A stretch of DNA of 64,000 nucleotides from an uncultured Gemmatimonadota bacterium (lineage in GTDB: Bacteria > JAAXHH01). Every line of letters starts with the position of its first letter. Within the stretch, counting starts at the first letter, position 1. Made by a program: the position numbers and the translations under genes. Below are positions 13,003 to 52,244 of the stretch, in pieces. The stretch covers positions 3,136,001 through 3,200,000 of the forward strand of contig OX638340.1 in assembly GCA_951812955.1 (NCBI GenBank), in the 5' to 3' direction. Under the pieces are notes generated by a model that searched no databases, was not told where the DNA came from, and saw only the letters and a list, made by a program, of their open reading frames with translations.

Positions 13003-13326
13003 TTATAAGTCTATTAAGCCAAAAAGACGGAAAAAGCTGATTAGGTTGAAGAAAAAAGTACCAATTCCTGTTGTTACGATTAAAATTTTGGTACCTATGT
13101 CCTGTTTATCCCAGTGCTTTATGTCCTTCCAATAGGATAACATAACTAAATTGGCTATCACAGTTACTGTATAGATTGTATCTAACCCATACGCATCTAT
13201 AATGTCACCAAGGTATTCTGACAGAGTCTCCTTAGTATCCCGATAAGGGTTCCCACCGCTCCAAATGCTCCTAAGCAAAACTATCACCCCTACCAATGCC
13301 AGCACTCTACTTACTAATTTCGTCAT
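13003..13326 (-). CDS. small polytopic membrane protein, candidate immunity protein for the orphan Rhs-CT toxin at 13356..15644
   Basis: 3-4 predicted TM helices. Low-GC. Lies immediately 3' of the toxin tip. Confidence 0.45.
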   Translation of the reverse strand: MTKLVSRVLALVGVIVLLRSIWSGGNPYRDTKETLSEYLGDIIDAYGLDTIYTVTVIANLVMLSYWKDIKHWDKQDIGTKILIVTTGIGTFFFNLISFFRLFGLIDL

Positions 13327-13355
13327 CTAATGTATTTCCTAGGTTGTAGGGTTGC

Positions 13356-17036: not shown

Positions 17037-17061
17037 GATTTCTCCTGGGGTTGGACTTCGG

Positions 17062-18918: not shown

Positions 18919-19291
18919 GCGGCTGCGCCAGGAGGTGTTGTCGGGGTGACGCGGATGAGGCCGTGTTTACTCGGAGTAATTGGGCTTGCTAGGAGCGGAT
19001 AGTGAGTAAAGCACTTACCTAGTATGTCGCCTTTGCATGCGACGGGTCCAATCCGACCGGCTACCGTTGCGTCGAAGGCGGCCTGAAGCCACTCAGTCGT
19101 TCAGCCTTGTCCTAAATTGTCAGCATGATTTGCTGAGATTGGTTTTCTTGATTCTCTACAACAAATGTCTGACGCTCAATTCTCATTGTAGCATCTGTCT
19201 ATCCAACGTAGCAACTATGAACTCCATCGAATAAACCATTCAAACATCCAAGCCGACGTACCTACAGGACATTGTTAGTCCGTTCAGAAGC

Positions 19292-20979: not shown

Positions 20980-20994
20980 TACTACTCACCTCCT

Positions 20995-28107: not shown

Positions 28108-28293
28108 GGTGAACTCCTTTAACATGGATGAATTGGAAAGGGGGTTGAATGAAACGCGCGATGTCAACGCATGGATGTATCGGATGAAGACCGGCATGAT
28201 GCGCTCCTTGATGGCGGACGGAACAGCCGCCCGGCATGGATCCTGCAACTCGTTATCGGGATGTGAGACTGAAGTCTTTGCGGGCATGAAATG

Positions 28294-34663: not shown

Positions 34664-34737
34664 GATATATCCTTTCATGGTATGCATCTGTTGGCAGATG
34701 GATTTGTACCGGCCGGGCCCTCGCCCGGTCCGGGTGG

Positions 34738-35118
34738 TCAGTAGCTCCATATCGTCGGCCTGGGAATGCCCGGCGCCTTGTCGAGGTCGTCGACGTGCAC
34801 GTAGCGGCTCCGGAAGTCCCCCCGCTGCCTGATGCCGATGCCGGTGAAACCGAGCATCAGCGCCATGCGGACGAGCCGGTGCGCCTTGTCGCCCGATATC
34901 GCGATGTCGACGGCCCGGCCGGCCAGATGGGCCGAACGGGACCTGCCCCCCACCTTGGCGTTGTGCTGGGGCGATCTGTACGCCGAGGTGACGATCAAAG
35001 GGAAACCGAGTTCCTCGCGCAGCAGCACGAGCCTGAGCATGAATCGCTCGTCCATCTCGTGCCTGCCGGTGTCCGGCGAGGAAAGGATCTGGTTCGGGAA
35101 GTACGGCCACGACTTCAT
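34738..35118 (-). CDS. peptidase M15 (VanY/YcbK-like zinc D-Ala-D-Ala carboxypeptidase fold), endolysin-like
   Basis: SAYRSPQHNAKVGG, SAHLAGRAVDI, YVHVDD zinc-ligand motifs. ATG 35118 preceded by SD AAGGAGG. Confidence 0.7.
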   Translation of the reverse strand: MKSWPYFPNQILSSPDTGRHEMDERFMLRLVLLREELGFPLIVTSAYRSPQHNAKVGGRSRSAHLAGRAVDIAISGDKAHRLVRMALMLGFTGIGIRQRGDFRSRYVHVDDLDKAPGIPRPTIWSY

Positions 35119-35247
35119 TTGCAAACCTCCTTGCCTTCCTTCCCCGGGACCCGATTTGTCGAACCCTCGGGGAAAGAAGACCTGTATGTACTGCGGTGAA
35201 CGATATGAACGCTTCTGCCAGGCGAACCGGATGACCCGGGTACGCAT

Positions 35248-35496
35248 TCACTTGAGCCGGCGGATCGTGAATGCGGGAGTATCCCATGCAGGATCACCTG
35301 CGTCCGCGTTCGGGGTGCTATGCGGAAGGACGCCGGACCGCCGGGTGGTCGCCCGGACGGTCCGCTCCTTCCCCTTCAACTGCTTGACGGCGGCTGACGG
35401 ACCGCCGTGTGCGGGCTTCCGATCGTTGCCGGGAGCCCTTGTATCTGCTTTGAGACCAACGCTGGTCGATCCTGCATCCGCGCGTTGCCGCTTCAT
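35248..35496 (-). CDS. small basic hypothetical protein
   Basis: 82-aa K/R-rich ORF. Start overlaps the stop of 35493..35702 (ATGA). Weak. Confidence 0.25.
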   Translation of the reverse strand: MKRQRADAGSTSVGLKADTRAPGNDRKPAHGGPSAAVKQLKGKERTVRATTRRSGVLPHSTPNADAGDPAWDTPAFTIRRLK

Positions 35497-37045: not shown

Positions 37046-39022
37046 CTATCCCGGAGATCCTTCTACCGTCCACGCGATGACCTGGCGCATTTCCGCAGCG
37101 GTACGCTGGGCTCTGAGCCGGTCCATCGCATCCGCCGCGCGGTAGGCATCTTCTATTTCATCGGTTTGAAATGCAGATCCGGTATTGTGCAGATACAACT
37201 CGGCGGGAGTCGCGAGCGCCGCCGCGGCGGCCAGTCCACCAAGCCGGCGCAAAACGGGTATGAACAGTTTCGCCTCGTACTCCGCATCGCTGTCCGTATC
37301 GAATCGGTCGACGTCGATCACGGCCCTGGTGATCTGCGGACACAGCCCGCAGGCCAGCAGGCACCACGGTCCGGCCGCGCCGATGCCGACCAGGGATACC
37401 GACGGAAATGCGCTCTCACGCCTGAGCCAGGCCACGGCCGTAAGGATATCCTGCACCCGGTTGGCGGTCGGTGTATGATTGTACGTTGAGAAGTAGGCAT
37501 GTTCCCCTGAATCCAACGCACCTTCCGCCATACCCGTGAGAAACACATCCACGACGAGTACCAGCCGGCCCTTTCCCAGGAGATGCTGAATCAACAGTCC
37601 GGGATCCCGTCCATTCTGCTGCGTCAGGGCCGATGCACCGCCGGGATGGACGACGAGGACGGCGCTCCTGGCGCTGCCCTCCGGCAGAAACGCGGTATAG
37701 GGCACCCGGTCGCCGTGATGCCTTCGTCCCATATACCCGGAGTGGATGGTACAGGCGTCGGCCTGGTGCTTACCTCGAGGCGCCACGACCAGGTCGTCAT
37801 CGGACCTGGCGGGCGATCCGATGATCGACCGGAAGCCGGTTGACATGATCTGCCGGAATCTGCGCAGCGACTTGGCGTCGGCAGGTTTCATCTGGTCGAG
37901 CTTTTTTCGAGTCCGTTCGATCCAGCCGCTCGTCAATCCGTCTTCGTCGACCCAGGGATCGGGTTCGTCGCCGGGCGTAACGGCCAACATCCTTTCCGGG
38001 GGCTCTAATTCGACAGGCCTGTCTGAGAATCGACCGCCGACTTCCTCCCCCAGCATCCACTTGCCGAACCAGGCGTACACGGCCTCCCGGCTCGCGGCAT
38101 TGTAATTGTGGCCCGCGTCGATCTGCACTTCCGCCAGGCAATCCTCGGCGCTGTAAAGCGCATAGACCGCCCGGATGGCCGGGTACTCCAGCACTGGCGT
38201 ATTCACCGTCCAGTCTCCGGTTGCGGACACCAGCAGCAGGGGCCGCGGCGCGGCCAGGGCGGCAATCTCCATGTTGTTCGTCTCGATGCGCAGATTGGGA
38301 CCATTCTCGCAGATGCATCCGCCCTGCATGTGCCCTGAGATCATGTTGACGGGTGCGGCAGCATGCACCCGGTCGTCGACCGCGGTGAGCATGAAGGTCT
38401 GCGTGCCGCCGCCGGAGGCCCCGGTACAGGCGATACGGCTGTTGTCCACGTCCGGAAGCGACTGGAGGAAATCGATGGAACGCATGCCGTTCCAGAGCTG
38501 CAGCCCCATGAGGCTGAGTCCCCAGAGCAGCTTCCGGTTGTCCCCGAATGTCCGGTGCGCCAGTTGCGTGCTGTCGTTGTAGCCGGCCATGGACCAGGCG
38601 AAGGCCACGTACCCCTGCCGGGCGAAGTTGATGCACCGCGCGGGTATCGAACCGTCGGGCTCGTGGTTGACGCGTCCTTCCTGCCAGTGTCCATGGGGAT
38701 TGAGTATGGCAGGATGGGGACCGTCGGTTTCGGCGGGACGGTACAGGTTTCCGGTCACGTAGAAGCCGGGCAGGCTATCAAAATGGACGTTTTCGATGCT
38801 GTAGCCGTCCCGCTCGACCCGGTGGGAGATCCGGGCGTTCAGCGGACACTTCGCGGGGCTCGGCCAGAGTCCCATGCTGACCAGTATATGCTCCTTGAGC
38901 GCCCGGGCCCGTTTCTCCCAGGCCTCCTTCGTGGCCGGCGCGACGAATTCACACGGGAGATCAAGGTGCCGTATTTCCGTCCTGCGTCGGTCTACGGACG
39001 GCAGGGGATCGTAGCTGTACAT
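37046..39022 (-). CDS. alpha/beta hydrolase, acetyl-xylan-esterase/dienelactone-hydrolase-like, two-domain
   Basis: GxSxG nucleophile elbow CTGASGGGTQT. Conserved HGHW segment. Confidence 0.6.
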   Translation of the reverse strand: MYSYDPLPSVDRRRTEIRHLDLPCEFVAPATKEAWEKRARALKEHILVSMGLWPSPAKCPLNARISHRVERDGYSIENVHFDSLPGFYVTGNLYRPAETDGPHPAILNPHGHWQEGRVNHEPDGSIPARCINFARQGYVAFAWSMAGYNDSTQLAHRTFGDNRKLLWGLSLMGLQLWNGMRSIDFLQSLPDVDNSRIACTGASGGGTQTFMLTAVDDRVHAAAPVNMISGHMQGGCICENGPNLRIETNNMEIAALAAPRPLLLVSATGDWTVNTPVLEYPAIRAVYALYSAEDCLAEVQIDAGHNYNAASREAVYAWFGKWMLGEEVGGRFSDRPVELEPPERMLAVTPGDEPDPWVDEDGLTSGWIERTRKKLDQMKPADAKSLRRFRQIMSTGFRSIIGSPARSDDDLVVAPRGKHQADACTIHSGYMGRRHHGDRVPYTAFLPEGSARSAVLVVHPGGASALTQQNGRDPGLLIQHLLGKGRLVLVVDVFLTGMAEGALDSGEHAYFSTYNHTPTANRVQDILTAVAWLRRESAFPSVSLVGIGAAGPWCLLACGLCPQITRAVIDVDRFDTDSDAEYEAKLFIPVLRRLGGLAAAAALATPAELYLHNTGSAFQTDEIEDAYRAADAMDRLRAQRTAAEMRQVIAWTVEGSPG

Positions 39023-39060
39023 AGAAGGCTCCGAAGCGTTGACGTCAAGCGGTGTGCAGT

Positions 39061-39137
39061 GATGGTGCGCGACTTAGCTGATGCGCCGCGACGGCTGTGA
39101 TCGTCGCGATGGTGCGCGACTTAGCTGATGCGCCGCG
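39061..39137. repeat. two 30-bp direct repeats (period 47 bp) plus a degenerate third copy at ~39196..39219
   Basis: ATGGTGCGCGACTTAGCTGATGCGCCGCGA x2 in the intergenic region between two minus-strand genes. Confidence 0.6.
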
Positions 39138-39226
39138 ATTTTGCGCGACGACGATGGCCGCGATTGGCGGTAATGGTAAGCCGCAATGATGCTTCACGAT
39201 GGTGCACAACTGAGCTCGAGATCGGC

Positions 39227-40156
39227 TCAGGGTATGTGCCAGGGCCTGCCCGGCCGCTGGTATTCGGTTCCGGCGGTTGGCAGGAACTGGCGAAGATGAC
39301 GGCAGCCCAGGGCAAATCCGGCCAATCCGGGCATGCCGCGGTCCTCGTTCTCGACACAGAGCACGTAGTCATAACCCGACTCGACCAGCGCGCCGACGAC
39401 GGTCCCCCAGTTAAGCTGTCCCCGGCCCGGCACCCGGTACTGCCACCACCAGTTTCCGATGATGCCCTGCCGGAACAGCATGTGTTTGCTCACCTCGGCG
39501 TCCTTCACGTCCGCGTAGACCCATTTGCCCGCGAACATGCGGATGGCGTCCTCGGCGGGCAGGATCATCATCCACAGCCAGTGGGAGGGGTCGCAGGAAA
39601 GACCGAGATGGTCAGAGGGGACGGCGTCCAGGACTCGTTCCCACATCTCCGGGTTGCAGGCGATGTTGCCCATGCGCACGGCGCCGTCCAGGGCGATGGT
39701 GACGCCGTGGTCCTCGGCCAGCTTCACGATGGGCTCGTACCGTCGCTGAAAACGGTCAACCAGCTCCTGCGAACGGTCTGCCGGGTTGCCGGGAGGAGAA
39801 GAGAACTGGCCATAGAAATGCCAGCCCACGGGACTGCCGGCGTGGGTGACGACCACCGGCGCACCCAGGGCCGAGGCCGCCAGGATGGCCTTGCGCAACC
39901 GTTCTTCCGCGGCGTCTGCCTGTTCCGTGTCGTCGTCCAGAAGGTTGTTGTGGGCCGACAGCGCGGCTAGGTAGATTCCGTGATGCTCGAGGGTGCCGTT
40001 GACTTCGTCGGGGCCCTCGGCAAGGATGCGGTCCGGATCGACGGAGCCGCCGGCAGAGAGCCGCACCGAGTCGAAGCCGTTCGCCTTCGCCCACCGGGCG
40101 CATTCATCAAGCGGCCACGCATCGCCTCCAGCGCTTGTGAAAAAACTGAGGTCCAT
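39227..40156 (-). CDS. sugar phosphate isomerase/epimerase (xylose-isomerase-like TIM barrel)
   Basis: Family-typical motifs (HGIYLAALSAHNN, VVVTHAG, WVYADVKD). ATG at 40156. Confidence 0.7.
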   Translation of the reverse strand: MDLSFFTSAGGDAWPLDECARWAKANGFDSVRLSAGGSVDPDRILAEGPDEVNGTLEHHGIYLAALSAHNNLLDDDTEQADAAEERLRKAILAASALGAPVVVTHAGSPVGWHFYGQFSSPPGNPADRSQELVDRFQRRYEPIVKLAEDHGVTIALDGAVRMGNIACNPEMWERVLDAVPSDHLGLSCDPSHWLWMMILPAEDAIRMFAGKWVYADVKDAEVSKHMLFRQGIIGNWWWQYRVPGRGQLNWGTVVGALVESGYDYVLCVENEDRGMPGLAGFALGCRHLRQFLPTAGTEYQRPGRPWHIP

Positions 40157-40170
40157 GGGCACATTCCGTG

Positions 40171-40482
40171 CTAAGCGTTGTCGGGCAGTCTATTCATCCG
40201 GACGTACCAGGCGCCCGATTGCGGTTTCCGGAACTTGTCCCCAATATCATGGAGCGCTACTTCGTCCGAATCAAGGACCGCCTGCAGCGCCGCCCTCCAG
40301 TCCACGGCGCCCCGATTCTTCCGGTAACGGACGTTGAGCAGCTTGCCCTTGCGTCCCTCTGCAGGGGTGAGACCCAGCAACACCCTCCGCGCCTCTTCGA
40401 GATCGGCCTCGGCGGCCTCAAGTTTTTTCAGGCATTGCACGTAGTCGAACTCGGCACGCTCCCACTCGTCCCTGAAATCCAT
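40171..40482 (-). CDS. hypothetical small protein
   Basis: 103-aa ORF from an internal ATG. Coiled-coil-like composition. Overlaps an equally plausible plus-strand ORF. Confidence 0.3.
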   Translation of the reverse strand: MDFRDEWERAEFDYVQCLKKLEAAEADLEEARRVLLGLTPAEGRKGKLLNVRYRKNRGAVDWRAALQAVLDSDEVALHDIGDKFRKPQSGAWYVRMNRLPDNA

Positions 40483-40544
40483 GAATGTTGGTCCTTGTGT
40501 TCCTGTTCTGAAATCGTTAAAGGCCTTATCCCGTGTCGCCGCGT

Positions 40545-40901
40545 CTAAGCCGTTCCGTACCGGTCCGTCGGCGTCTTGACCAGTTTCAGCGAGGGGACGT
40601 ACCCTTCCTGCTCGATGTAGTAATGGGCGTGCTCGTGGCACCCGGGCGGCTTGGTCCCGTCGAAGACGCTGATGGTGAAGTCGTCGCTGTTCGGACCGTC
40701 GCTACCGTGTTCGAAACCCGCGGGGATCATCCAGACGTCTCCCGCTTCCAGCACGAAATCCTCCCGGTTGCCGTCGTGATCGATCCAGAAACCCGTCCCG
40801 CTTCCTTTCAGGATCAACCAGGTCTCGTCGTGGTCGTGGAAGTGCTTCTCGCACGTGGGCAGGGCAAAGCCGCCATGTAAAAGGGCCTTGTGGTGGGCCA
40901 T
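40545..40901 (-). CDS. cupin domain protein
   Basis: Cupin motifs HFHDHDETWLILKG and GDVWMIPAGFEH. Confidence 0.65.
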   Translation of the reverse strand: MAHHKALLHGGFALPTCEKHFHDHDETWLILKGSGTGFWIDHDGNREDFVLEAGDVWMIPAGFEHGSDGPNSDDFTISVFDGTKPPGCHEHAHYYIEQEGYVPSLKLVKTPTDRYGTA

Positions 40902-41214
40902 CGGGGTTCCTTTCGGTTTCTCGTGGGGATGCGATAAACAAACATATCGTCGAATACCGTGGCTAACCTTATACCTTTACAAGAGTGTATTATAAGACCG
41001 CCTGAACGATACATCAAGGATCAATAGGAACATGTGTGATTGCTCGTTTGTGGGTTGAAGCGAACTGTGAGATTTGGTATATTGCGGGGATCGGATTCCA
41101 GATCATACGTCTGGACGGTTTGTCCTGATTTGTTGTAGTTCACTTTCCAGTTACATGAGGAGGCATGAACACACGGCATACCGCTGATTAGTAGCAGTTC
41201 GTGCCATTTCCCTT

Positions 41215-42189
41215 TTGTTAGCGGTACAAAAGATTACCTGCTGCATTAATACTGAAGTAAGGCAACTTATCTGTGAGGTGTTTGTGGACGAGTATTCCAA
41301 TTTAATCAAAGCAATCGCTACATTTCTGTGGCCATCTCTTACTTTTGTTGTCGTTCTCATCTTCAGAAGAGAGATTGGAGATGCAATTGAGCGCCTCAAA
41401 AAAGGCAAGTTGTTTGGTCAGGAGGTAGAGCTTCATAATAACCTAGAAACATTACATCAGTCAGTATCTCGGGCATCGGACGAGGTTGCGTCACTGCCGA
41501 AGCCGAAAGAACTGGAAAACGAAGACGATGGCCAGCACAGGGATAAAGAAGACGACGAAGTGATTCGTTCAGTTATACATGAAGCGTCGCATTCTCCTAA
41601 GGCGGCATTGATGATTTTGGCTGCCGAGATAGAAAAGGAAGCCAGGTTAATTCTTGCTAGTGTCGGCAAGATAGATGGACGGTCGCACATTCCAATAACT
41701 CAGGCCATTCGTGTCTTGGATTCACACTATGGACTACCGCGTTTTCTTTCCAGCAGCCTGAACCTATTTTGGGACACTCGCAACAAGTTAATCCATGGCA
41801 GAGACACCGAAGACGGGAATGTCCTCAGTGCGCTTGATTCTGGTATTACGATTTTGAAATCGCTGCAAGCCCTTCCAAGGCAGCTAAACATCGTTTACAA
41901 AACGGGGGTACCAATCTACTCAGATCCAGATTGCCAACACGAGATTACCAATGCGACTGGAGTGATTCTAGAAAGTCGATCCAATGAATATGCGCAGTTT
42001 TGTTACAGGATTTTCCCTACAACTCGTTCACATTTTGAGGAGGGTAGATCAGTAGCCTGGGAATGGAATATGAACGATATTTGGCAAGACGCTTGGTACC
42101 GAGATCCTCTAGAACCTGGGGGAGCGATTAAACTTGCCTGGAATTCTTCCGCAGAATTTATAGGCCGTCATTTAGACGACCTTGGATAA
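41215..42189 (+). CDS. membrane-anchored protein with C-terminal HEPN-like domain (Rx4H), Abi-like
   Basis: N-terminal TM helix IATFLWPSLTFVVVLIF. Helical domain with FWDTRNKLIHG (R-x4-H). Low-GC, at the island edge. Confidence 0.45.
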   Translation: MLAVQKITCCINTEVRQLICEVFVDEYSNLIKAIATFLWPSLTFVVVLIFRREIGDAIERLKKGKLFGQEVELHNNLETLHQSVSRASDEVASLPKPKELENEDDGQHRDKEDDEVIRSVIHEASHSPKAALMILAAEIEKEARLILASVGKIDGRSHIPITQAIRVLDSHYGLPRFLSSSLNLFWDTRNKLIHGRDTEDGNVLSALDSGITILKSLQALPRQLNIVYKTGVPIYSDPDCQHEITNATGVILESRSNEYAQFCYRIFPTTRSHFEEGRSVAWEWNMNDIWQDAWYRDPLEPGGAIKLAWNSSAEFIGRHLDDLG

Positions 42190-42658
42190 CTTGCTTAGTT
42201 TCACAAACAAGAAAATCCTCTGGTGCAGACTGAACCTCTGCCGGTCATAATGGGTTTGGTATACTGAGATTGAAACCCCGGTACACCGTTGAAAACCGTT
42301 CCTTTACGTATTTCGTGTTTAACTTGTTATATGTACGATTTAGGCATGTATTTGGAATGTTAATAAGTTAGCTGGTAGTCCTTCGAATCGGTATGTCAGA
42401 ATATACCATACATCCTTGCCAAAGTTGTTAATAAGTATTGTCTGTGTGGCAGTATAATTCAGTTTAAGGCGGCGTATCCACCAATAGCCTTACATTGCCG
42501 TGAAAAACAGGCTCATAAATTACGGATCAAGATTAAGAGGTATTCGGTTTTGAAGCTATAGTGAACTGATTGATATGAACGAAATTCGCATAGGTAAAGC
42601 AGATTACCGGAAGCAGTCATCAGAATAGGTTTACTACTACACAACGACTGTAGAATGA

Positions 42659-43378
42659 ATGGATTCGACGGGTCAATCGGACTGGTTAATGGCAAAATTG
42701 GACGCACACTACAAGGGACACCGTAGCCGACTCCGTGAGCGGTTCCAAAAGAGTGGATTTGGTGGATTCGCTGAGCACGAGGTCATTGAGTTACTGTTGA
42801 CGATGGCCATGACCCGTTCGGACGTAAAACCACAGGCCAAGATGTTGCTTGAGCGTTTTGGCAGTCTGCGAGGCATTTTGGATGCACCAGTATCCGAACT
42901 GCAGTCGGTAAAGGGAATTGGTGAGATTTCAGCCATACTACTGAAAGTTATCCGTGAATCGGCGACGATGTATTTATTGGAAGCATCAAAAGAAACAGAA
43001 GTCCTCAGCGATCCGGAGCGGCTCAGCAATTTCTGGCGCATGCGAATCGGCCATCTTAAGAACGAAGTGTTCGCTGTCGCTTACCTTGATTCAGCTTATC
43101 GGTTGTTGCGTAATGGCGTAGAAACGCTTCAGGAAGGTACGATAGACCGTGCAGCGGTGTACCCGCGCCGCGTCGTGGAGGCGGCACTTAATCGCCAGGC
43201 GGCGGCCCTCGTGCTCGCGCACAACCATCCGAACGGCGATGTCGAGCCGAGCGAACAGGACAAGATGATAACACGCGCCGTCACGCTTGCAGCCGAAACC
43301 ATCAGCATACGAGTCGTCGATCATCTAATAGTGTCGGCCTCGGAGACTTTCAGTTTCAGAAAAGCGGGACTGCTATGA
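42659..43378 (+). CDS. radC: RadC-like JAB/MPN domain protein
   Basis: JAMM motif LAHNHPNGD, ExnS region. N-terminal HhH-like segment (GIGEISAILL). Confidence 0.8.
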   Translation: MDSTGQSDWLMAKLDAHYKGHRSRLRERFQKSGFGGFAEHEVIELLLTMAMTRSDVKPQAKMLLERFGSLRGILDAPVSELQSVKGIGEISAILLKVIRESATMYLLEASKETEVLSDPERLSNFWRMRIGHLKNEVFAVAYLDSAYRLLRNGVETLQEGTIDRAAVYPRRVVEAALNRQAAALVLAHNHPNGDVEPSEQDKMITRAVTLAAETISIRVVDHLIVSASETFSFRKAGLL

Positions 43379-46239
43379 GTATCGCGCCAGCGATCCAGAA
43401 GCACTTTCCTGAGCTTATCTACAGCCAGAGGGAGGTCGTCGGCCATCTCGACGGACCGTTGCTGGTGATTGCGGGACCGGGATCGGGCAAGACTTTCAGC
43501 ATTGTCCTGAGGGCCTTGAATCTTATGTTGCTGGAGAAGGCCGAGCCAAATGAGATTCTGCTCTGCACCTTTACCGAAAAAGCTGCCTACGAGATGCGGG
43601 ACCGATTGACTGCAGCGGCCCGTAAAGTGGCGTACACGGGTGACCTTTCCGAACTGAAGGTCTCGACCATACACGGCTTCTGCCACCGGATGCTCGCCCA
43701 ACACCGGCACAAGACTGAACTCGGGCACAACTACGAAACGCTCGACGAATTGACACAACTTCTCTTCATATTCGAGCACTTCGACGAGATCATCGGTCCG
43801 CCTATCGACGACCGTTTTCTCACTCGCTGGAAAACGCGTTGGACAGCCATTGAAGGCGTGCGTGGCTATTTTGACAAGATCACGGAAGAATTGGTAGACT
43901 CTCGCTGCCTTACGGCATCCTCCGACCCATTTTTGTCGGTGATTGGTACTGCGTATCAACACTACGAACAAGCCCTGCAAGTGGCCAACAGGATTGACTT
44001 TGCCCACCTGCAGAGAACCGTATACGGCCTGCTGGACAACTCTACGGACACCGCTGCCATTTCCACCGACGTGCGCTATCTGCTGGTAGACGAGTATCAG
44101 GACACGAACTACATACAAGAGCGGATTCTCCTGAAGTTGGCCGAACCGGGCAACAACTTATGCGTCGTAGGGGATGAGGATCAAAGCCTCTACCGTTTCA
44201 GGGGCGCGACTGTCCGTAACATCCTGGAGTTCGCACAGCACTTTCAGGAATGCAGGATCGCCAGGTTGACAACAAACTACCGGTCTCACCGCTCAATTGT
44301 AGAGCGCTACGACCATTGGATGGAGTCGGCTGACTGGTCCGATCCAGCGGGAGGTTCATACCGACACGAGAAAACCATCGTTGCTGATCCCATGGCGCAA
44401 CATCCTGACTATCCCTCTGTCATAAGCATTTGGGGAAGGAACAGGCACGATGAAGCCGACCGGTTCGCCGATCTCGTCGAGTTCCTTAAAGAGAGCGAGG
44501 TAATAGTAGATTACAGTCAGATCGCATTGTTGCTGCACAGCGTGCGCGAACAACACAGCGGCCCTTATCTGGAGGCGTTGCGGCGCAGGGGCATCCCCGC
44601 GTTCTGTCCTCGGGCGCGCGTCTTCTTCCATATACCGGAGATTCGCTATCTGATCGCCTGTTATGCCATTTTGTTCGGCTGGTACGGCGACCGGCGCGGT
44701 GATCTCATAGGCGTCGTGAAGCAACTTGCTGAGTACGTGGACGAGGCCATTATCGACTTAAGCAAGCGCTTCGTGTCCACCGACCCGCTCGCGGAGAGAC
44801 TTCAGAGTTGGACCGGCGAGATCGCGGCGCTTCAGGAAGAAGAGACGCTCGACCTGCGGCCGGCCGATTATTTCTATAGACTGATCGCACTTGATCCATT
44901 CCGGAAGGCTGTCCGAAACGAAAACACCGCACGCAACTTAGCCATTTTCTCCGAACTTCTGACCATTTTTCAAAGCTATTATCATTTTCCGGTCATTACG
45001 TACAGGAATCGCGAGTACATCCGATTTCACTTCTTCAACAGCTTCTTGCGATTTCTCCACGCTGGCGGAATCAACGAGTACGAGGATCCGGACAAGCCGT
45101 TCCCTCGGGGCCACGTGCAGGTGATGACTGTCCATCAGGCCAAGGGCCTTGAGTTCCCTGTAGTCGTTGTCGGGTCCCTTTCGGTGTCTTTAAGCAGCCC
45201 CAAGCAAATCGATCGCAACCTTATGCCATTCTATCACCGCCCGCCCTTCGAGCCGGAGGACCGGATCACGCTCTTCGACCGCATGCGGTTGCACTACGTA
45301 GCGTTTTCACGACCGGAAAGACTGCTGGTACTTACCGCGCACGAACAACCGAAAGACTACTTCTCACCCATTTGGCAAGGGCTTCCCCAGTGGCCGTACA
45401 TCCCTAAGGAAACGCTGGCCAGCCAATCCTTCGAGCGACACGAGCGTATGCCGATCAAAAAGACGTATAACTTTACGGGTGATCTCAAGGTTTACGAAAC
45501 ATGCCCTCGCCAATATCAGTTCTTCCGCGAATACGGCTTTGCACCCTCCCGTTCCGCGGAGATGTTCTTTGGACTGCTCGTACATCAGTCTATCGAGGAA
45601 ATCCACCGTATCGCCCTTGACGGCCTAATCCATACGCTGGACGACGCGCGTGTCGGCGAGTTGTTTGAAAGAACTTACCAGTTTCTAAATCTCACCGATA
45701 GGCGTCCCATTGGCGATAGAGCGAAGGAGTTGGCTTTAAAGCAGGTATTGAACTATTATCGACAGAACCAGGATGGATTGAATCGGATCATCGAGACGGA
45801 GGTGGATGTATCGCTGGAGAAAGACGGGTACATACTCGCAGGAAAGGTCGATCTTCTTCTCGGCGACGACGGCAAGTTGGAACTATTGGATTTCAAAACC
45901 TCGCCGCGTCCGGCAAGCACGCCCGAACTAATCGCCGCATACGGAAGACAACTCTGCACCTATGCGCATATACTGGAGCAACGGCACGAAAAACATGTGG
46001 ACCGGTTGCTACTGTATTGGACAGCAGAGAAATCACGGGACCAGGCGCTCATGGTCCTGCCGTTACGCCCGGAATCGATAGAGGAAGCGGGCCGATACTT
46101 CGACGAGACCGTAAAACGGATTCAGACAGGTAAATTCGTGGTAAACACACCTCCCGAAGCGAAAGTCTGCCAGGAATGCGACCTGCAGATGCTGTGTCAC
46201 GCGGACGGTGTTATAGAATGGGCGGAGGCAGTCGCTTGA
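43375..46239 (+). CDS. UvrD/PcrA-family SF1 helicase fused to a C-terminal Cas4/AddB-like PD-(D/E)xK nuclease with a 4-Cys cluster
   Basis: Walker A AGPGSGKTFSIV. UvrD motifs (LLVDEYQDTN, VMTVHQAKGLEF). C-terminal C-x5-Y..D..GKVDLL..LELLDFKT and CQECDLQMLC. ATGA overlap with radC. Confidence 0.8.
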   Translation: MSIAPAIQKHFPELIYSQREVVGHLDGPLLVIAGPGSGKTFSIVLRALNLMLLEKAEPNEILLCTFTEKAAYEMRDRLTAAARKVAYTGDLSELKVSTIHGFCHRMLAQHRHKTELGHNYETLDELTQLLFIFEHFDEIIGPPIDDRFLTRWKTRWTAIEGVRGYFDKITEELVDSRCLTASSDPFLSVIGTAYQHYEQALQVANRIDFAHLQRTVYGLLDNSTDTAAISTDVRYLLVDEYQDTNYIQERILLKLAEPGNNLCVVGDEDQSLYRFRGATVRNILEFAQHFQECRIARLTTNYRSHRSIVERYDHWMESADWSDPAGGSYRHEKTIVADPMAQHPDYPSVISIWGRNRHDEADRFADLVEFLKESEVIVDYSQIALLLHSVREQHSGPYLEALRRRGIPAFCPRARVFFHIPEIRYLIACYAILFGWYGDRRGDLIGVVKQLAEYVDEAIIDLSKRFVSTDPLAERLQSWTGEIAALQEEETLDLRPADYFYRLIALDPFRKAVRNENTARNLAIFSELLTIFQSYYHFPVITYRNREYIRFHFFNSFLRFLHAGGINEYEDPDKPFPRGHVQVMTVHQAKGLEFPVVVVGSLSVSLSSPKQIDRNLMPFYHRPPFEPEDRITLFDRMRLHYVAFSRPERLLVLTAHEQPKDYFSPIWQGLPQWPYIPKETLASQSFERHERMPIKKTYNFTGDLKVYETCPRQYQFFREYGFAPSRSAEMFFGLLVHQSIEEIHRIALDGLIHTLDDARVGELFERTYQFLNLTDRRPIGDRAKELALKQVLNYYRQNQDGLNRIIETEVDVSLEKDGYILAGKVDLLLGDDGKLELLDFKTSPRPASTPELIAAYGRQLCTYAHILEQRHEKHVDRLLLYWTAEKSRDQALMVLPLRPESIEEAGRYFDETVKRIQTGKFVVNTPPEAKVCQECDLQMLCHADGVIEWAEAVA

Positions 46240-46306
46240 TGTCCAAGGAATTCTTTATTCTCATCCAAAATCGGATGATGTTTGGCAAACCAAAAGGAAC
46301 CTGAAA

Positions 46307-48274
46307 ATGGCAAAGATCGACATCACAAAGACCGAATTGGTCTGGCCTGGAAAGTTCGATGAGGATGGAACGCTTAGGGAAGTTCCTCGGGTCAACCTGC
46401 CATTTCAAGTCATCGAAACCGTGAATGAGAGTCGTGCTACGCGCGAAGTAAAGAAAGGTACGGTGCAGGAGTCCCTTTTTGATTTCTATGAAGGTAAGGA
46501 GGGGGACACCTTTGAGGATGGATGGAAGAACAAGCTCATATGGGGCGACAATCTGCTGGTGATGGGTTCATTGCTGGAGAAGTTTGCAGGGAAGATCGAT
46601 CTGATCTACATCGATCCGCCTTTTTTTACAGGAGTTAACCAGCTAGCAACGGTGTTTCTTGGGGAGGGCAATACTGGATTTGAGAAAGAGACGTCAATCA
46701 CAGAGGATGTAGCGTATAGAAATGCGTGGCGTGACGGGGATCCGTCCTTCATGACATGGATTCGAGATCGACTCAGTCTTATGCGTGATCTTCTCAAACC
46801 GAGCGGCATTATCTTCATTAGGTTTGACCAATACTGGAGCCACAGCGTTAAACTGATCGCAGATGAAGTCTTTAGCCGGGATTTGTTTCAGAACGAGATT
46901 ACAGTGAAACGTATTTTTAAAAACGTCACAGGTCAAGGTCGCGTCTCAATTCCACTCGCTACAGATACATTGTTTTTGTACTTCCGAACCGATCAAGCGC
47001 AATTTGCAGATACCCTAGTTCCAAGGGAGAAGACGCGGCCGGGATTCTGGCGACACATGGACGATTCTTCGGGCGTCAGGCGTCCACCTGAGCGCCGTAT
47101 GTTTGGAAGAGTCTTCTATCCACCGCCTGGCAAGCATTTCAAATTTTCCCAAGCAAACATCGACAAGAAGATAGCAGATGGAAAAGTCAGACTCAATCCC
47201 AAGACTGGTAAGCCCGAGTACTGGGTCGAGGAGAGTTCAGTTAAACCCTTGAATTCGAATTGGACAGACATCCCAGGCTACTCGTTCACTACCTCCTATC
47301 CAACGGAAAATTCCGAAGCACTCCTTCAAAGAGTCATCAAAGTTGCGTCACATCCGAATGCACTCGTGGCAGATTTCTTCGGTGGTTCTGGCACGACAGC
47401 AGCAGTCGCTGAACAACTTGGCCGTCGCTGGATCACGTGCGACGTTGGTCGTTTTTCGATCCACACGATTCGGAAGCGACTGCTCGACATTGAAAACTGC
47501 CAACCCTTCGAGGTACTGAACCTTGGTAAATATGAGCGCCAGTATTGGCAGGGGGTGACGTTCGGCGGTCAGAGCAACAAGTCACTAACCGAAAAAGCAC
47601 TCTATGAGTACCTTGCCTTCATCCTTAAGCTATATGGCGCACAGCCGGTAGCGGGATTGGAACATCTACATGGGAAGAAAAACAAGGCTATGATACACAT
47701 TGGCGCGGTGGATGCCCCGGTCACCATTGACGAGATCGATGATGCTGTAGAAAATTGTGCCAAACTGAAGCAGGCTGAATTGCACGTTCTTGGCTGGGAA
47801 TGGGAAATGGGACTCCAGAATCTTGTAGTTTCACAAGCACAGAAGAAGGGCGTGAAACTAATACTCCTGCAGATACCCTTGGAAGTGATGGAGCAACAGG
47901 CCGTGGATGATGGCGATATCCGATTTTTCGAACTGGCCTATTTAAGGGCGATGATAGTAAAACCAAAGAAACTTACCGTGCAAGTTCACCTTAAAGATTT
48001 TGTCATCCCCAACACCGAACTCATCCCTGAAGAAGTGCGGGACAGGGTTACGAAGTGGTCGGACTACATCGACTACTGGACTGTGGACTGGGACTTTCAG
48101 AACGACACCTTCATGCAGGGATGGGTAGCCTACCGCACCCGCAAAGATCGAACGCTCTCACTCATTTCCGACTTTCACACTTATGAAAAGCCCGGCAAAT
48201 ACCAAGCTCTGGTCAAAGTAATCGACATCTTCGGCAACGACACCTCGCAACTTCTTGATGTCGAGGTGAATTAA
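46307..48274 (+). CDS. mod: Type III restriction-modification methyltransferase (Mod, beta-class N6A/N4C MTase)
   Basis: Motif IV DLIYIDPPF precedes motif I ALVADFFGGSGTTAAVA. Confidence 0.8.
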   Translation: MAKIDITKTELVWPGKFDEDGTLREVPRVNLPFQVIETVNESRATREVKKGTVQESLFDFYEGKEGDTFEDGWKNKLIWGDNLLVMGSLLEKFAGKIDLIYIDPPFFTGVNQLATVFLGEGNTGFEKETSITEDVAYRNAWRDGDPSFMTWIRDRLSLMRDLLKPSGIIFIRFDQYWSHSVKLIADEVFSRDLFQNEITVKRIFKNVTGQGRVSIPLATDTLFLYFRTDQAQFADTLVPREKTRPGFWRHMDDSSGVRRPPERRMFGRVFYPPPGKHFKFSQANIDKKIADGKVRLNPKTGKPEYWVEESSVKPLNSNWTDIPGYSFTTSYPTENSEALLQRVIKVASHPNALVADFFGGSGTTAAVAEQLGRRWITCDVGRFSIHTIRKRLLDIENCQPFEVLNLGKYERQYWQGVTFGGQSNKSLTEKALYEYLAFILKLYGAQPVAGLEHLHGKKNKAMIHIGAVDAPVTIDEIDDAVENCAKLKQAELHVLGWEWEMGLQNLVVSQAQKKGVKLILLQIPLEVMEQQAVDDGDIRFFELAYLRAMIVKPKKLTVQVHLKDFVIPNTELIPEEVRDRVTKWSDYIDYWTVDWDFQNDTFMQGWVAYRTRKDRTLSLISDFHTYEKPGKYQALVKVIDIFGNDTSQLLDVEVN

Positions 48275-48276
48275 CC

Positions 48277-51120
48277 ATGGCAAAAGCCGTCATCAATTAC
48301 GACAAGGAGTTGCCGGAGATTCAAGATCGGCGACCTTGGGAAAAGCCCGGATCCTACTTGGTCAAGGACGAAGAGGAGCCAACGGGTTGGCGGGAGGATA
48401 CTTCCGGCCGTCGCCCGACCAAGCTTCTGCTGGTGCCTAAAATCCGTAAGGCCGTTGATGCGTGGCGAGACAGTGGCTACAAAGGAGCATCGGAAGTCTC
48501 CCTGCGCTTGTTTGAGTATTGGTTCCATGAGGATCACAAGGTCAACGGATTCGATACGCCGTTCCGGTACTACTTCTGCCAACGAGAAGCTATAGAAACG
48601 CTGGTCTGGTTGGTGGAGGTCGCCTGCCAGCAGGACGCGATAGCGCTTATAGAGAAATATGGATCGTTCTATCAACTGGACCTTCTATCGAAAAACATTG
48701 AGTTTCAGACTACCATAGATGGCAGGCGGCAGATTCGTCGATACATACCAGAACTGGAACAACATGGCATACAGGACTTACCGTCCAAAGAATTGCGTCG
48801 CTACGCCTTCAAGATGGCCACTGGGTCGGGTAAAACCTGGGTGATGGCCATGATGGTCGTCTGGTCGTGTTTCCACAAGCAGCGCGTACCTGGTTCGAAA
48901 CTTTCCACGAATTTCCTTATCGTAGCCCCCAATGTGATCGTCTATCAGCGGCTGGAGAAGGACTTTGCAAACAACCGGATATTTAATGAGTTACCATTGA
49001 TCCCGCCGGAATGGAAAGGCAATTTTAACCAAAAGGTGATTTTGCGCGGGGAAGTCGCTGAGCCCGACCCGTCGGGGAATCTGTTTCTTACGAATATCCA
49101 TCAACTGTACGAATCTCGCGATCAGAAGTGGACCCCGGGAAACGCCGTCGAAGCCCTCCTGGGCAAGACCCCCGCGCCAGATCTCGCGGCATCTGGTCAG
49201 CGGACCATGCTGGAGTGCGTGAAGTATCTAAAAGACCTCGTCGTGCTAAATGACGAAGCCCACCACGTCCATGATGACGACCTATCCTGGAATCAATCTC
49301 TGCTGGCTATTGATAATGCGTTGCCGAAGGGACTCTGCGCTTGGCTCGACTTTTCAGCCACGCCGAAAGACCAGAACGGCATGTACTTCCCTTGGACCGT
49401 TGTGGACTACCCGTTGGCACAGGCCGTGGAGGATAGAATCGTCAAAGCCCCACTCATCGTAACCAAGGGGGATGATCCCAATCAGCCGACCGAAGATCCC
49501 GATGGGATCACTAAGGAGAACGTAGCACAGAAATACGGTTACTGGCTACAGGCCGCCGCGCAACGTTGGAAGGAACACTGGCAGATTTACAGGAAGCTCG
49601 GGACCAAGCCTGTCCTCTTTGTCATGGCTGAAAAAAACATCTATGCAGATGCCCTGGGAGAGTATCTGTGGAAGACTAAGGAATTTGGTTTCAAGGAATC
49701 CGAGGTACTCGTTATCCATACGGACAATACGGGTGAAGTTCGGAAAGGGGATATCGAGAAAGCCCGGAAGGCTGCAAGAGACATCGATAAGGCAGAGAGC
49801 AAAATAAAAGTGATCGTCAGCGTTATGATGCTGCGCGAGGGTTGGGACGTTCGGAATGTTACAGTGGTACTGGGTTTGCGCCCCTATACTGCGAAAGCCG
49901 AGATATTGCCGGAACAGGTGATCGGTCGCGGACTTCGTCTGATGACCCAGGTAAGCCCCGACCAAACGCAGACCCTTGAGGTGCTCGGAACGCGTAACCT
50001 GCTCGAAGTGCTACGCGATCAACTTGAGGCTGAGGGCGTCGGAGTAGCGAGTACGAAGGACAATACGCCACTGCCAGTCATCATTGAGCCGGTGCAGGAA
50101 CGACTGAATTACGACATCGCCATTCCAATCACGAAACCGAGTCTAACACATGATTTCCGCAAACTGTCCACCGTTGATGTGCCATCGCTGGAAGCGATTT
50201 ACGATCAGGAAGAACTGGCCGAACCGTTTCGGGTCGGTCTGAAGATGGAATTCGCAATGACGGAGACCGAGGTTCATCAAGCCGACGTTGCGTTGCAACT
50301 CCGACCTGCCCAGGAGCTTTTGGCGAGCATCGCCAACAAGACGGCTGAGCGCGCCAATCTGACTAACTGTTTTGCGGAATTGTATCCCATTATTCAGGAT
50401 TATGTCGAGAATCGTTGCTTTGGACATAAAATTGAACTGTCAGATGAAACCATTCGCTCCCATCTCGAAAGATTGGAGTTGCAGAATGGGATTGCCGGAT
50501 ACATGGCACGTAAGCTTTCGACGCTTTCCATTAAACGGCATGCAGTCGAGTTCGAGAAAGAGGATTACCGTCTTTCCCTGACCAGACCCTTTAGCTGGCG
50601 ACGCAACTTGCCACCAATGCAGGCGTACAAAACGATTTTCAACTTCGTGGCCACCTACAATGACTTTGAGCGAAGCTTTGCGACGTTCTTGGATGGAGCG
50701 GAAGATGTGGTGCGCTTTGCGGCACTTGGCACGACAGAACAAGGACGTTCCGGTACGACATTTCACATCGACTACCTGAAACCGACTGGGGCTATCGGAT
50801 TCTACTATCCAGACTGGGTAGTCGTTCAAAAGGCCAAAGATAACGAAGTGAACTGGATCGTTGAGACCAAGGGCCGAGTCTGGGAAGGAACCGCCGAAAA
50901 AGATGTCGCAGCGCGAAACTGGTGCAAGCGGGTAAGCAACGCCACGGGAAAGCCTTGGAAGTACACCCGCATCAACCAGTCAGAGTTTACGGATGAACTC
51001 GCGACGTTTCGCGCACTGATTGTAGATAAGGCGATTAAAACCTCAGTTCAACGACACGAAAACATGCAACCGGTAACGCAGGAAGAAATCCGCCGCTGGA
51101 AAGAAGAGGGCCGTCGCTGA
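48277..51120 (+). CDS. res: Type III restriction endonuclease Res subunit (SF2 helicase + C-terminal nuclease)
   Basis: Walker A MATGSGKTWVMA. DEAH box LNDEAHHV. Motif VI QVIGRGLR. C-terminal D..VETKG nuclease motif. Adjacent to mod. Confidence 0.8.
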   Translation: MAKAVINYDKELPEIQDRRPWEKPGSYLVKDEEEPTGWREDTSGRRPTKLLLVPKIRKAVDAWRDSGYKGASEVSLRLFEYWFHEDHKVNGFDTPFRYYFCQREAIETLVWLVEVACQQDAIALIEKYGSFYQLDLLSKNIEFQTTIDGRRQIRRYIPELEQHGIQDLPSKELRRYAFKMATGSGKTWVMAMMVVWSCFHKQRVPGSKLSTNFLIVAPNVIVYQRLEKDFANNRIFNELPLIPPEWKGNFNQKVILRGEVAEPDPSGNLFLTNIHQLYESRDQKWTPGNAVEALLGKTPAPDLAASGQRTMLECVKYLKDLVVLNDEAHHVHDDDLSWNQSLLAIDNALPKGLCAWLDFSATPKDQNGMYFPWTVVDYPLAQAVEDRIVKAPLIVTKGDDPNQPTEDPDGITKENVAQKYGYWLQAAAQRWKEHWQIYRKLGTKPVLFVMAEKNIYADALGEYLWKTKEFGFKESEVLVIHTDNTGEVRKGDIEKARKAARDIDKAESKIKVIVSVMMLREGWDVRNVTVVLGLRPYTAKAEILPEQVIGRGLRLMTQVSPDQTQTLEVLGTRNLLEVLRDQLEAEGVGVASTKDNTPLPVIIEPVQERLNYDIAIPITKPSLTHDFRKLSTVDVPSLEAIYDQEELAEPFRVGLKMEFAMTETEVHQADVALQLRPAQELLASIANKTAERANLTNCFAELYPIIQDYVENRCFGHKIELSDETIRSHLERLELQNGIAGYMARKLSTLSIKRHAVEFEKEDYRLSLTRPFSWRRNLPPMQAYKTIFNFVATYNDFERSFATFLDGAEDVVRFAALGTTEQGRSGTTFHIDYLKPTGAIGFYYPDWVVVQKAKDNEVNWIVETKGRVWEGTAEKDVAARNWCKRVSNATGKPWKYTRINQSEFTDELATFRALIVDKAIKTSVQRHENMQPVTQEEIRRWKEEGRR

Positions 51121-51542
51121 TGGCCACTGTGATCGATGCTTCGGTGATGGTAGCCTTCCTGTTACGCAACGAAGATAATAGTCGTTACGCACGACGAATA
51201 GTCGAAAGACTTGATAGGGAAGAACTGATCGTGCCGAGGATTTTCTGGTATGAAGTTCGTAATGTTCTATTGAAGGCGAAACGGAACAATCGAATTGGGC
51301 AACAGGATTTTGAAGATTGCCTGATTCAACTCACGGATGAGATTTCACCGACAGAGGATGACAGAAACGACGAAGATAGGACGTTGGACCTCGCACTACG
51401 TCATAACCTTACGGTATATGACGCAAGCTATCTCGAGACGGCCATCAGACGCAAAGCTAGCTTGGCGACCTTCGATCGAAACCTCGCGGATGCGGCCTCT
51501 AGCGAAAGAGTTGAGAATCCGGCAGTCGGTTTTAGCGCTTAG
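51120..51542 (+). CDS. PIN domain ribonuclease (VapC-like), no adjacent antitoxin
   Basis: VIDASVMVAFLL (Asp5), EVRN (Glu), TVYDASYLE (Asp), TFDRNL (Asp). Start overlaps the res stop. Confidence 0.75.
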   Translation: MATVIDASVMVAFLLRNEDNSRYARRIVERLDREELIVPRIFWYEVRNVLLKAKRNNRIGQQDFEDCLIQLTDEISPTEDDRNDEDRTLDLALRHNLTVYDASYLETAIRRKASLATFDRNLADAASSERVENPAVGFSA

Positions 51543-52244
51543 GGCGGATGCATTCCCCAGAAAAGAAGAACGTGTCTTCCGCGCTGGTGCTGAATTCAGG
51601 ATCGCGGGAGAATCCAAAGGATGGGAAAGGGATACTGCCAGCAGAATTGCGACAGGGTAGGTATGGCAACAGGCCGAGTTCCACCGCTAATATGGAGCCA
51701 CGCCCGGAGAATGGCTTGCACACCTTTGTGAAGTTGTAGCGGTCAGTTTATGCGATGTGAACCAGCGCGGTGGATGTACTTCAGGCTAGATTATCACTGC
51801 GCGTTTATGGCGGAGGGTGGCGTTCCGGGCACGTAACCGAGTCTCTGGTAATGCCGCAAGGCGCAAGACGGGGTCCTGAAGGCCTTCCCAAGCGGGGTTC
51901 GGTGCGGATTGAAGAGGTGACTCCGGACCTGCATCAAGTTGATCCACAATCCCAACACTGGTGAATTACCCGTCCTCGGTAGCGCACCTTGGTTTTTGTG
52001 TAGCAGTTCAATTGGGAATGCTGACCTTCACTTTGTCGCTGTGCCCCTTATCTCCTCGGGCAGATCTTCAAGCGATTTGTGGTTGGAGGTCGCGAAGGGT
52101 TGACTATCTGATTCTTATCACTAACCACCGCTTCTAAACACCGTTCACCCTGTTCATAACTCAAATGTAGTCTGCAAAACGCCAGGTACGTCGCAAGACT
52201 TCAGAAACTGTTACAGAATCCGGAACAAAAAAGGGTCACCTCCC

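Follow-up and report, generated by a model that had tools for sequence, protein, structure and literature searches.

A UvrD-Cas4-like helicase-nuclease coupled to RadC in a Type III restriction-modification cassette of an uncultured Gemmatimonadota bacterium

Introduction

Fusions of a superfamily 1 (SF1) UvrD-like helicase to a Cas4-like nuclease, termed UvrD-Cas4-like, form the largest branch of pfam12705 and are monophyletic (Hudaiberdiev et al., 2017, BMC Evol Biol 17:232, PMC5704561). Their genes lie most often beside the Type III restriction-modification genes Mod and Res and sometimes beside genes for Schlafen-like ATPases, and an ancillary role in defense has been predicted for them (PMC5704561). 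The same authors also proposed a role like that of the RecB/AddB nuclease domains in promoting recombination (PMC5704561). Here we describe a member of this family encoded in a stretch of 64,000 nucleotides (nt) from an uncultured Gemmatimonadota bacterium (assembly GCA_951812955.1, contig OX638340.1, positions 3,136,001 to 3,200,000 of the forward strand), referred to below as the window. The gene encodes a protein of 954 amino acids (aa), is translationally coupled to radC, and is followed on the same strand by the Type III genes for the methyltransferase Mod and the restriction subunit Res, and then by a gene for a PIN nuclease. Taken together, the sequence comparisons below indicate that these five genes are a horizontally transferred, co-inherited cassette. 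The genes are as follows.

42659..43378, plus strand: radC, full-length RadC with an N-terminal helix-hairpin-helix (HhH) domain and a JAB/MPN domain, motif HNHPNG...PSEQD
43375..46239, plus strand: helicase-nuclease, open reading frame (ORF) of 954 aa with an ATG start
46307..48274, plus strand: Mod, beta-class N6/N4 DNA methyltransferase of the Type III type, beginning 67 nt after the helicase gene
48277..51120, plus strand: Res, superfamily 2 (SF2) ATPase with a C-terminal PD...ExK endonuclease, beginning 2 nt after Mod
51120..51542, plus strand: PIN (VapC-like) nuclease gene, its start overlapping the Res stop by 1 nt

The 954-aa protein is a member of the UvrD-Cas4-like family both in its own make-up, an SF1 UvrD-like helicase joined to a pfam12705 Cas4-like nuclease, and in its neighborhood of Type III Mod and Res genes, with Schlafen-like genes occurring occasionally in related loci as in the published set. 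The clade of the window protein, which is large and environmental, differs from the published description in having a coupled RadC and a PIN gene that co-varies with the tail of Res. Neither RadC, JAB nor PIN is mentioned in the text or supplements of the 2017 study (PMC5704561). In the literature searched, the term "UvrD-Cas4" was not found outside that study, and no description was found of a cassette in which RadC accompanies Type III restriction genes or a UvrD-Cas4 protein. The coupling to RadC, which is conserved, and the covariation of PIN with the Res tail appear to be new details of a family whose existence and Type III link were already described. A first-pass annotation of the window had presented the gene as a standalone helicase-nuclease of defense type with a RadC partner; the domain architecture, the RadC coupling and the defense context of that interpretation have stood, whereas the standalone status has not, and the fusion and its link to Type III genes had already been published (PMC5704561).

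Comparison with described helicases, nucleases and RadC proteins

The AddAB, AdnAB and RecBCD enzymes share with the 954-aa protein a UvrD-type motor fused to a RecB-type nuclease, and the cysteine pattern of the protein resembles the "iron staple" of AddB. However, the window protein consists of one polypeptide, no gene for a second motor or nuclease subunit lies alongside, and its gene belongs to a restriction-modification cassette rather than to a repair operon. Assignment to AddAB or RecBCD was rejected on NCBIfam scores far under the cut-offs (AddA 148.8 against 707.65; RecB 114.2 against 696) and on the lack of a partner gene in the surrounding genomic island. CRISPR Cas4 proteins have the same nuclease fold, and their C...CxxCx5C cysteines align with those of the window protein in profile searches (4ic1, 7mi4), whereas the window nuclease is fused to a helicase. 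Cas4 proper was likewise rejected, with a TIGR00372 score of 47.9 bits against a cut-off of 65 and with RadC, Mod, Res and PIN as neighbors. There are no cas genes among the ORFs of the island of ~11 kb, all of which are accounted for; the window was not scanned for a CRISPR array.

Among models of defense systems, the best 25 of 64 PADLOC matches of the 954-aa protein are all to GajB or DRT helicase models. The UvrD-like core matches the PADLOC GajB models at 5e-49, and the two share the logic of a helicase working with a nuclease, but the match is limited to the N-terminal ~300 aa (aa 10-310) and the nuclease of the window protein is fused and of the Cas4 type. Gabija was rejected since a match to GajA (OLD/TOPRIM) is found in none of five neighbors. 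Unlike in Hachiman and in DdmDE, where the helicase-nuclease DdmD is partnered by the pAgo protein DdmE, the helicase-nuclease gene has no HamA and no pAgo neighbor.

RadC proteins have been linked to helicases and to mobile elements before. Fusions of RadC to DinG/Rad3 helicases were noted earlier, with a predicted role in nucleic-acid processing (Iyer et al., 2017, PMC5512222). The RadC of the window resembles the RadC-like JAB proteins of mobile elements (PMC5512222) and those of "RadC/ArdB" modules (PMC12458937) in its conflict or mobile-element context. It differs from them in being a full-length protein with an HhH N-terminal domain that scores above the generic RadC equivalog cut-off, and in being encoded by a separate gene coupled to an SF1 helicase-nuclease within a restriction cassette rather than an antirestriction module.

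Domain organization and conserved sites of the helicase-nuclease

The 954-aa protein is divided into a motor and a nuclease, the latter with four cysteines in the arrangement C...CxxCx5C (C710 and C932-x2-C935-x5-C941).

43375..45441, plus strand: helicase part, aa 1-689, SF1A UvrD/PcrA-like motor
45442..46239, plus strand: nuclease domain, aa 690-954, Cas4/RecB-family PD-(D/E)xK
45502-45504, plus strand: codon of C710, within CPRQYQ
46168-46170, plus strand: codon of C932, within CQECDLQMLC
46177-46179, plus strand: codon of C935, within CQECDLQMLC
46195-46197, plus strand: codon of C941, within CQECDLQMLC

Pfam assigns UvrD-helicase to aa 17-291 (E=1.4e-65), followed by UvrD_C and by PDDEXK_1 at aa 704-942 (E=2.5e-25), with a weak additional match to Cas_Cas4 (5.3e-5). 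Walker A (GPGSGKT, 34-40), motif II (DEYQD, 239-243) and motifs III-VI are intact and invariant in alignments, and phmmer searches of PDB match the helicase to PcrA (5.5e-43) and UvrD1 (4.3e-41). The catalytic residues of the nuclease are H737, E809, D826, D839, K841, Q859 and Y863; among them D826, D839-F-K841 and Q859xxxY863 supply the D, D/ExK and QxxxY signatures of the RecB family. These matches and motifs bear out the first-pass annotation, which had described a complete SF1 UvrD core with a C-terminal Cas4/AddB-like nuclease, and all of the motifs it quoted can be located: CPRQYQ contains C710, GKVDLL contains D826, LLDFKT contains D839 and K841, and CQECDLQMLC contains C932, C935 and C941.

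Conservation of these residues was assessed in close and in diverse relatives. The four cysteines are invariant across 135 close relatives. The diverse alignment comprises 87 sequences, namely the window protein and 86 full-length representatives of 50%-identity clusters that are 28-57% identical to it; here the cysteines are kept in 85-86 of the 87 sequences, each of the seven catalytic residues is kept in at least 84, and GKT and DEYQD of the helicase are as well conserved as the cysteines. Because the cysteines and catalytic residues are conserved in close and diverse relatives alike, the sites are beyond what chance would produce, and the four-cysteine motif of the Cas4/AddB type that had been proposed from the window alone is upheld by its near-invariance down to 28% identity.

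A search of PDB with the nuclease domain as a single sequence returned nothing meaningful, and a profile was needed. The profile matches Cas4 SSO0001 (4ic1, 2.8e-7), Cas4-Cas1 (7mi4), Pcal Cas4, MGME1, AdnA, AddA and ExoV; in these alignments CxxCx5C pairs with that of Cas4-Cas1 and CPRQY pairs with CPRR of SSO0001. Structure prediction, which the first-pass annotation had put forward as a check, recovered the nuclease fold: the model of the domain, built from a diverse alignment of 82 sequences, is confident (predicted local distance difference test, pLDDT, 89.8; predicted template modeling score, pTM, 0.84), it matches ACE1, AdnA and AddA/B in Foldseek, and the blocks around the cysteines have pLDDT values of 82-87. 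Judged from the residues present, both the motor and the nuclease sites of the 954-aa protein are intact. In Cas4, AddB, Dna2 and ExoV, four cysteines arranged in this way bind an iron-sulfur cluster, and such a cluster is predicted here.

RadC and its coupling to the helicase-nuclease

RadC of the window matches the Pfam family RadC (2.7e-36) and the HhH-containing UPF0758_N, and scores 194.6 bits with NCBIfam NF000642 against a cut-off of 180. Among 101 RadC sequences from cassettes, there is almost no variation in the JAMM core AHNHPNG (187-193) or in the aspartate downstream of it. The true start of radC may be the ATG at 42689 (M11), since homologues mostly align from residue 11-17. At the junction of the two genes, CTGCTATGAGT, the radC stop TGA (43376-43378) overlaps the helicase ATG (43375-43377); this 4-nt ATGA overlap, reported in the first-pass annotation, is read directly in the sequence. 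Across the 91 RadC/helicase junctions, approximately 67 have a 4-nt NTGA overlap and 11 a 1-nt overlap.

Co-occurrence of JAB-domain genes with such helicases, another check proposed in the first-pass annotation, was counted from both sides. RadC is directly upstream in 30 of 38 loci selected by the helicase, and the helicase is directly downstream of RadC in 64 of 71 metagenome loci selected by RadC. To call the RadC partner unusual was fair, in that the coupling is conserved in the clade and goes unmentioned in the 2017 paper and its supplements. Fusion of RadC to the helicase-nuclease was found in none of seven extended family members, whose extensions are UDG-like, RecQ-like or HTH domains. 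These include an N-terminal domain of the uracil-DNA-glycosylase superfamily (P0156) and part of a RecQ/DEAD-type SF2 helicase (P0174, P0212).

In cassettes of the close clade that do not have RadC, other conflict-type genes have been observed upstream: an Mrr restriction endonuclease, an ArdC antirestriction protein on the opposite strand, an HNH endonuclease and DUF6994. Their positions in the related loci are as follows.

L019:9032-9892: upstream conflict-type gene, RadC absent
L020:8369-9511, minus strand: upstream conflict-type gene, RadC absent
L025:7674-8597: upstream conflict-type gene, RadC absent
L032:8818-9609, minus strand: upstream conflict-type gene, RadC absent

The Type III genes and the PIN nuclease

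Mod has DPPF (motif IV, aa 103) before FGGSGT (motif I, aa 358) and matches Pfam N6_N4_Mtase at 2.6e-30 and PADLOC MTase_III at 3.1e-104. Its identity between loci is 50-87%, often only the C-terminal half can be aligned, and the N-terminal and central parts are variable. Res carries TGSGKT (182-187), DEAH (326-329), P845-D846, E863 and K865, all invariant in 22 sequences. It matches Pfam ResIII (4.5e-19) and RE_endonuc, scores 285 bits with the NCBIfam BPTD_3080 family, under the cut-off of 800, and matches PADLOC REase_III weakly (1.9e-17). The pair is assigned to Type III on a beta-class Mod, with motif IV before motif I, lying upstream of an SF2 ATPase/PD...ExK Res. EcoP15I and EcoP1I are alike in mod standing upstream of res, in a beta-class Mod with DPPF before FxGxG, and in a Res of the same build; by comparison, the window cassette has three extra co-transcribed genes (RadC, helicase-nuclease and PIN), and its Res matches Type III models weakly. 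Type III enzymes require two unmethylated asymmetric sites in inverse orientation and cleave ~25-27 bp away from one of the two. Since Type III Mod, Res and PIN follow directly on the same strand, the 954-aa protein is not, as had been supposed, an effector that stands alone in the manner of Nhi, GajB or DdmD.

The PIN gene (Pfam PIN, 7e-19) is translationally coupled to Res and goes together with a particular form of it. In a comparison of window positions 50990-51542 with the related loci L001-L128, a C-terminal tail of Res (~aa 905-947) is present only in cassettes that carry PIN: all 11 loci with a Res of the 947-aa type have a PIN gene that overlaps the Res stop by 1 nt, and PIN is missing from all 16 loci whose Res is shorter (917-931 aa equivalents). 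In Thermus brockianus, a plasmid encodes a related Res with a separate AbrB/MazE antitoxin gene between it and PIN. Given this covariation and the separate antitoxin in Thermus brockianus, the Res tail may stand in for an antitoxin or tether PIN. A VapBC type II toxin-antitoxin pair was considered and rejected, as Res lies directly upstream of PIN and there is no separate antitoxin gene.

Conservation of the gene arrangement

Close homologues of the helicase-nuclease (61-92% identity) are very numerous and come from metagenome-assembled genomes (MAGs) of at least 10 bacterial phyla and one archaeon. The loci selected by the helicase originate from Gemmatimonadota, Acidobacteriota, Planctomycetota, Chloroflexi, Nitrospirae, Deltaproteobacteria, Verrucomicrobia, Spirochaetes, Actinobacteria and an archaeal MAG. 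Locus L039, whose genes are broken by frameshifts, was left out of the analysis. Where at least 7 kb of downstream DNA is available, Mod and Res follow the helicase in 24 of 25 such loci, the exception being L032. Matrices of pairwise identity for 22 cassettes are correlated between helicase and Res (r=0.77), RadC and helicase (r=0.72) and RadC and Res (r=0.54; Mantel p=0.001).

The gap between helicase and Mod is a recurrent accessory slot of 0-6.4 kb, which is empty in the window (46240-46306). In a set of 44 related loci, the gap is short in 19, as it is in the window, while 8 have a Schlafen-like gene (481 aa, AlbA_2/HATPase_c_4/Fic-like_C) and 17 have a Sacsin/NOV_C gene. The product of the latter is 1070-1540 aa long and has a Sacsin-like (GHKL-type) ATPase domain at its N terminus and a NOV_C domain at its C terminus; the gene is found in none of the PIN-type cassettes. 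Examples of the filled slot are as follows.

L010:12802-16101: filled slot
L024:12890-17356: filled slot
L002:12871-14316: filled slot

Full-length homologues at 33-36% identity are found on eight plasmids (Alpha-, Beta- and Gammaproteobacteria, Bacteroidota, Bacillota) and in one phage genome. In all nine of these distant contexts the order is helicase-nuclease, methyltransferase and then a protein of 870-1070 aa, and in some of them the genes overlap or stand a few nucleotides apart. The third protein has a ResIII ATPase and a C-terminal TnsA-like endonuclease in the two contexts scanned by Pfam, and one such protein shows 21% identity to the window Res in an alignment that runs the length of it. 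RadC stands beside the helicase gene in 0 of the 9. The triad of helicase, Mod and Res is therefore considered ancient, with RadC and PIN added in the clade of the window, because the distant contexts keep the triad without RadC. On the plasmid of Tunicatimonas pelagia (L045:5764-7901), a phosphoribosyltransferase-domain gene and a DprA/SLOG-type gene (DNA_processg_A 3.5e-58) lie directly upstream of the distant helicase-Mod-Res triad, in the position that RadC holds in the clade of the window.

The low-GC island and its transfer

The cassette lies in a region of low guanine-cytosine (GC) content.

40915..52229, no strand: low-GC island of ~11 kb carrying the cassette, GC 0.49-0.54 against 0.58-0.64 in the flanks

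In a syntenic relative (MKWU01000414.1; L049), the cassette occupies the same place in the chromosome. Nucleotide identity is 85% in the flanks (window 37049-40914 and 52230-52585) and 94% in the cassette (42716-51547); by gene, identity is 81% for RadC, 92% for the helicase, 99% for Mod, 97% for Res and 90% for PIN. The higher identity of the cassette than of its flanks places the bounds of the island at ~40.9-52.2 kb. It also points to a recent exchange, or to recombination within the cassette. The flanking genes vary between the genomes that carry homologues. There are no tRNA genes in the window, no convincing flanking repeats were found at the island, and the island has no match to Rfam families. 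A scan of the island for promoters and terminators gave counts no higher than in shuffled sequence, and therefore nothing is inferred from it about operon boundaries. The island also contains an ORF of 324 aa (41215-42189, plus strand) with no Pfam, NCBIfam or PADLOC match; it was rejected as a member of the cassette, having no homologue in related loci and lying in a segment that is not shared with the syntenic relative.

Possible roles of the cassette

Degradation of DNA after restriction is a known activity of RecBCD and AddAB, and provides a model for what the helicase-nuclease may do. In the account that we consider fairly probable, the helicase-nuclease processes the ends of DNA cut by Res, with RadC as its coupled accessory. 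Mod-Res would recognize and cut unmethylated foreign DNA; the helicase-nuclease would load on the resulting ends or nicks, unwind and degrade the DNA, and so turn a single cut into irreversible destruction. RadC, with its HhH DNA-binding domain and JAB metal site, could be a stoichiometric accessory that works on DNA or on DNA ends capped by protein, and PIN could be an added back-up nuclease. A stronger version, which is possible but doubtful, makes RadC a dedicated stoichiometric subunit of the helicase-nuclease and the five products one restriction-and-destruction machine, in which the JAB site acts on DNA ends or capping proteins and the Res tail tethers or checks PIN.

Several other explanations have been weighed. 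RadC and the helicase-nuclease could instead process and help repair the double-strand breaks made by Res in a host chromosome that has yet to be methylated. A mobile cassette could then establish itself in a new host following horizontal transfer, and restriction would be alleviated when DNA is damaged. The very wide transfer of the cassette (61-78% identity across phyla, the cassette more alike than its flanks), the position of RadC and the helicase-nuclease ahead of Mod and Res, and the recombination role like that of RecB/AddB proposed in 2017 (PMC5704561) are consistent with such a module. However, related Res/Mod pairs spread on plasmids without it, no feature for Chi recognition or RecA loading could be recognized with the tools used, and most host bacteria already encode RecBCD or AddAB (PMC5704561), so that this explanation is judged unlikely. 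It is also conceivable, though quite improbable, that RadC and the helicase-nuclease form a self-sufficient two-gene system for defense or DNA surveillance, with a logic like that of Hachiman, Gabija or Nhi, and merely travel with the Type III genes. The accessory slot falls exactly between helicase and Mod, the family also occurs with Dcm-Vsr or alone (PMC5704561; L032), and the gene-wise differences in identity to the syntenic relative suggest recombination between modules. Against this, the order helicase-Mod-Res is fixed down to 33% identity in Proteobacteria, Bacteroidota, Bacillota and a phage (9/9 contexts), with genes overlapping or only a few nucleotides apart in some of them; such order and orientation are not expected to survive under random clustering in defense islands, and the helicase and Res identity matrices are correlated as given above.

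The databases name the protein "DNA helicase II / PcrA", and its RadC neighbor scores above the NCBIfam equivalog cut-off for generic RadC, as would suit a RadC and UvrD/PcrA-like helicase of chromosomal DNA repair with restriction-modification genes as incidental neighbors. The helicase nevertheless falls far short of the NCBIfam cut-offs for PcrA (213.8 against 911), UvrD (170.5 against 1144) and Rep (167.7 against 951), its gene lies in a low-GC island, it is distributed patchily across phyla at ~70% identity, including plasmids and an archaeon, and its flanking genes change between genomes. On account of these scores, the island position and the distribution, housekeeping repair is regarded as very improbable. 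The preference of the first-pass annotation for a defense over a housekeeping context is supported by the low-GC island, the spread over many phyla and plasmids, and the restriction-modification neighbors.

Processing of Res-cut ends by the helicase-nuclease, with RadC as accessory, has its own difficulties, and the following observations count against it. About one fifth of the close clade lacks RadC, as do all nine of the distant contexts. One close locus, L032, carries the helicase-nuclease without RadC, Mod or Res, and the UvrD-Cas4-like family is known to occur also with Dcm-Vsr or alone (PMC5704561). The closest plasmid relatives of the window Res (30% identity; Sinorhizobium, Aminobacter) lie on plasmids that are absent from the list of UvrD-Cas4 matches, and no UvrD-Cas4 gene was found near the Aminobacter relative, the one context inspected. 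On these grounds, the helicase-nuclease is best described as an add-on to more than one Mod-Res lineage and not as a universal component. The variable slot between helicase and Mod, together with the other contexts of the family, also makes the helicase-nuclease look modular rather than obligatory, and it is for this modularity that end processing of Res-cut DNA is rated no higher than fairly probable. In addition, the full-length model of the 954-aa protein, built from 58 close homologues, is poor (pLDDT 54, pTM 0.33) and was not used, and no experimental work on any family member was found in the literature searched.

Other features of the window

Upstream of the island, window positions 11553-28287 on the minus strand hold an Rhs-repeat locus with alternating low-GC stretches (0.47-0.54) and small ORFs without a family. 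It has the look of a locus for polymorphic toxins in which orphan cassettes are present. A protein of 1941 aa with Ig-like and cadherin-like repeats is encoded at 29462-35287, adjoining the Rhs locus. A second lower-GC stretch is found at 56-62 kb. The features of these regions are as follows.

20995-28287, minus strand: Rhs protein of 2430 aa, Rhs repeats
17527-18918, minus strand: shorter Rhs-repeat ORF
13356-15644, minus strand: shorter Rhs-repeat ORF
11553-12401, minus strand: shorter Rhs-repeat ORF
58212-59585, plus strand: RmuC-family gene, in the second lower-GC stretch
59823-61076, plus strand: AAA_14/DUF4143 ATPase, in the second lower-GC stretch

Significance

UvrD-Cas4 helicase-nucleases, which in 2017 were predicted to aid Type III restriction, amount to thousands of sequence clusters in bacteria, archaea and plasmids, and the current names "DNA helicase II/PcrA" and "DNA repair protein RadC" conceal their defense context. 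The compact five-gene cassette lends itself to asking why a restriction enzyme should need a helicase-nuclease of its own. The RadC family is widespread, and its role has been unsettled since the original radC phenotype was reassigned. For this very widespread protein, the coupling described here supplies a concrete partner and a phenotype to seek. If RadC were a dedicated subunit of the helicase-nuclease, this would give the RadC family its first defined biochemical partner and a testable function.

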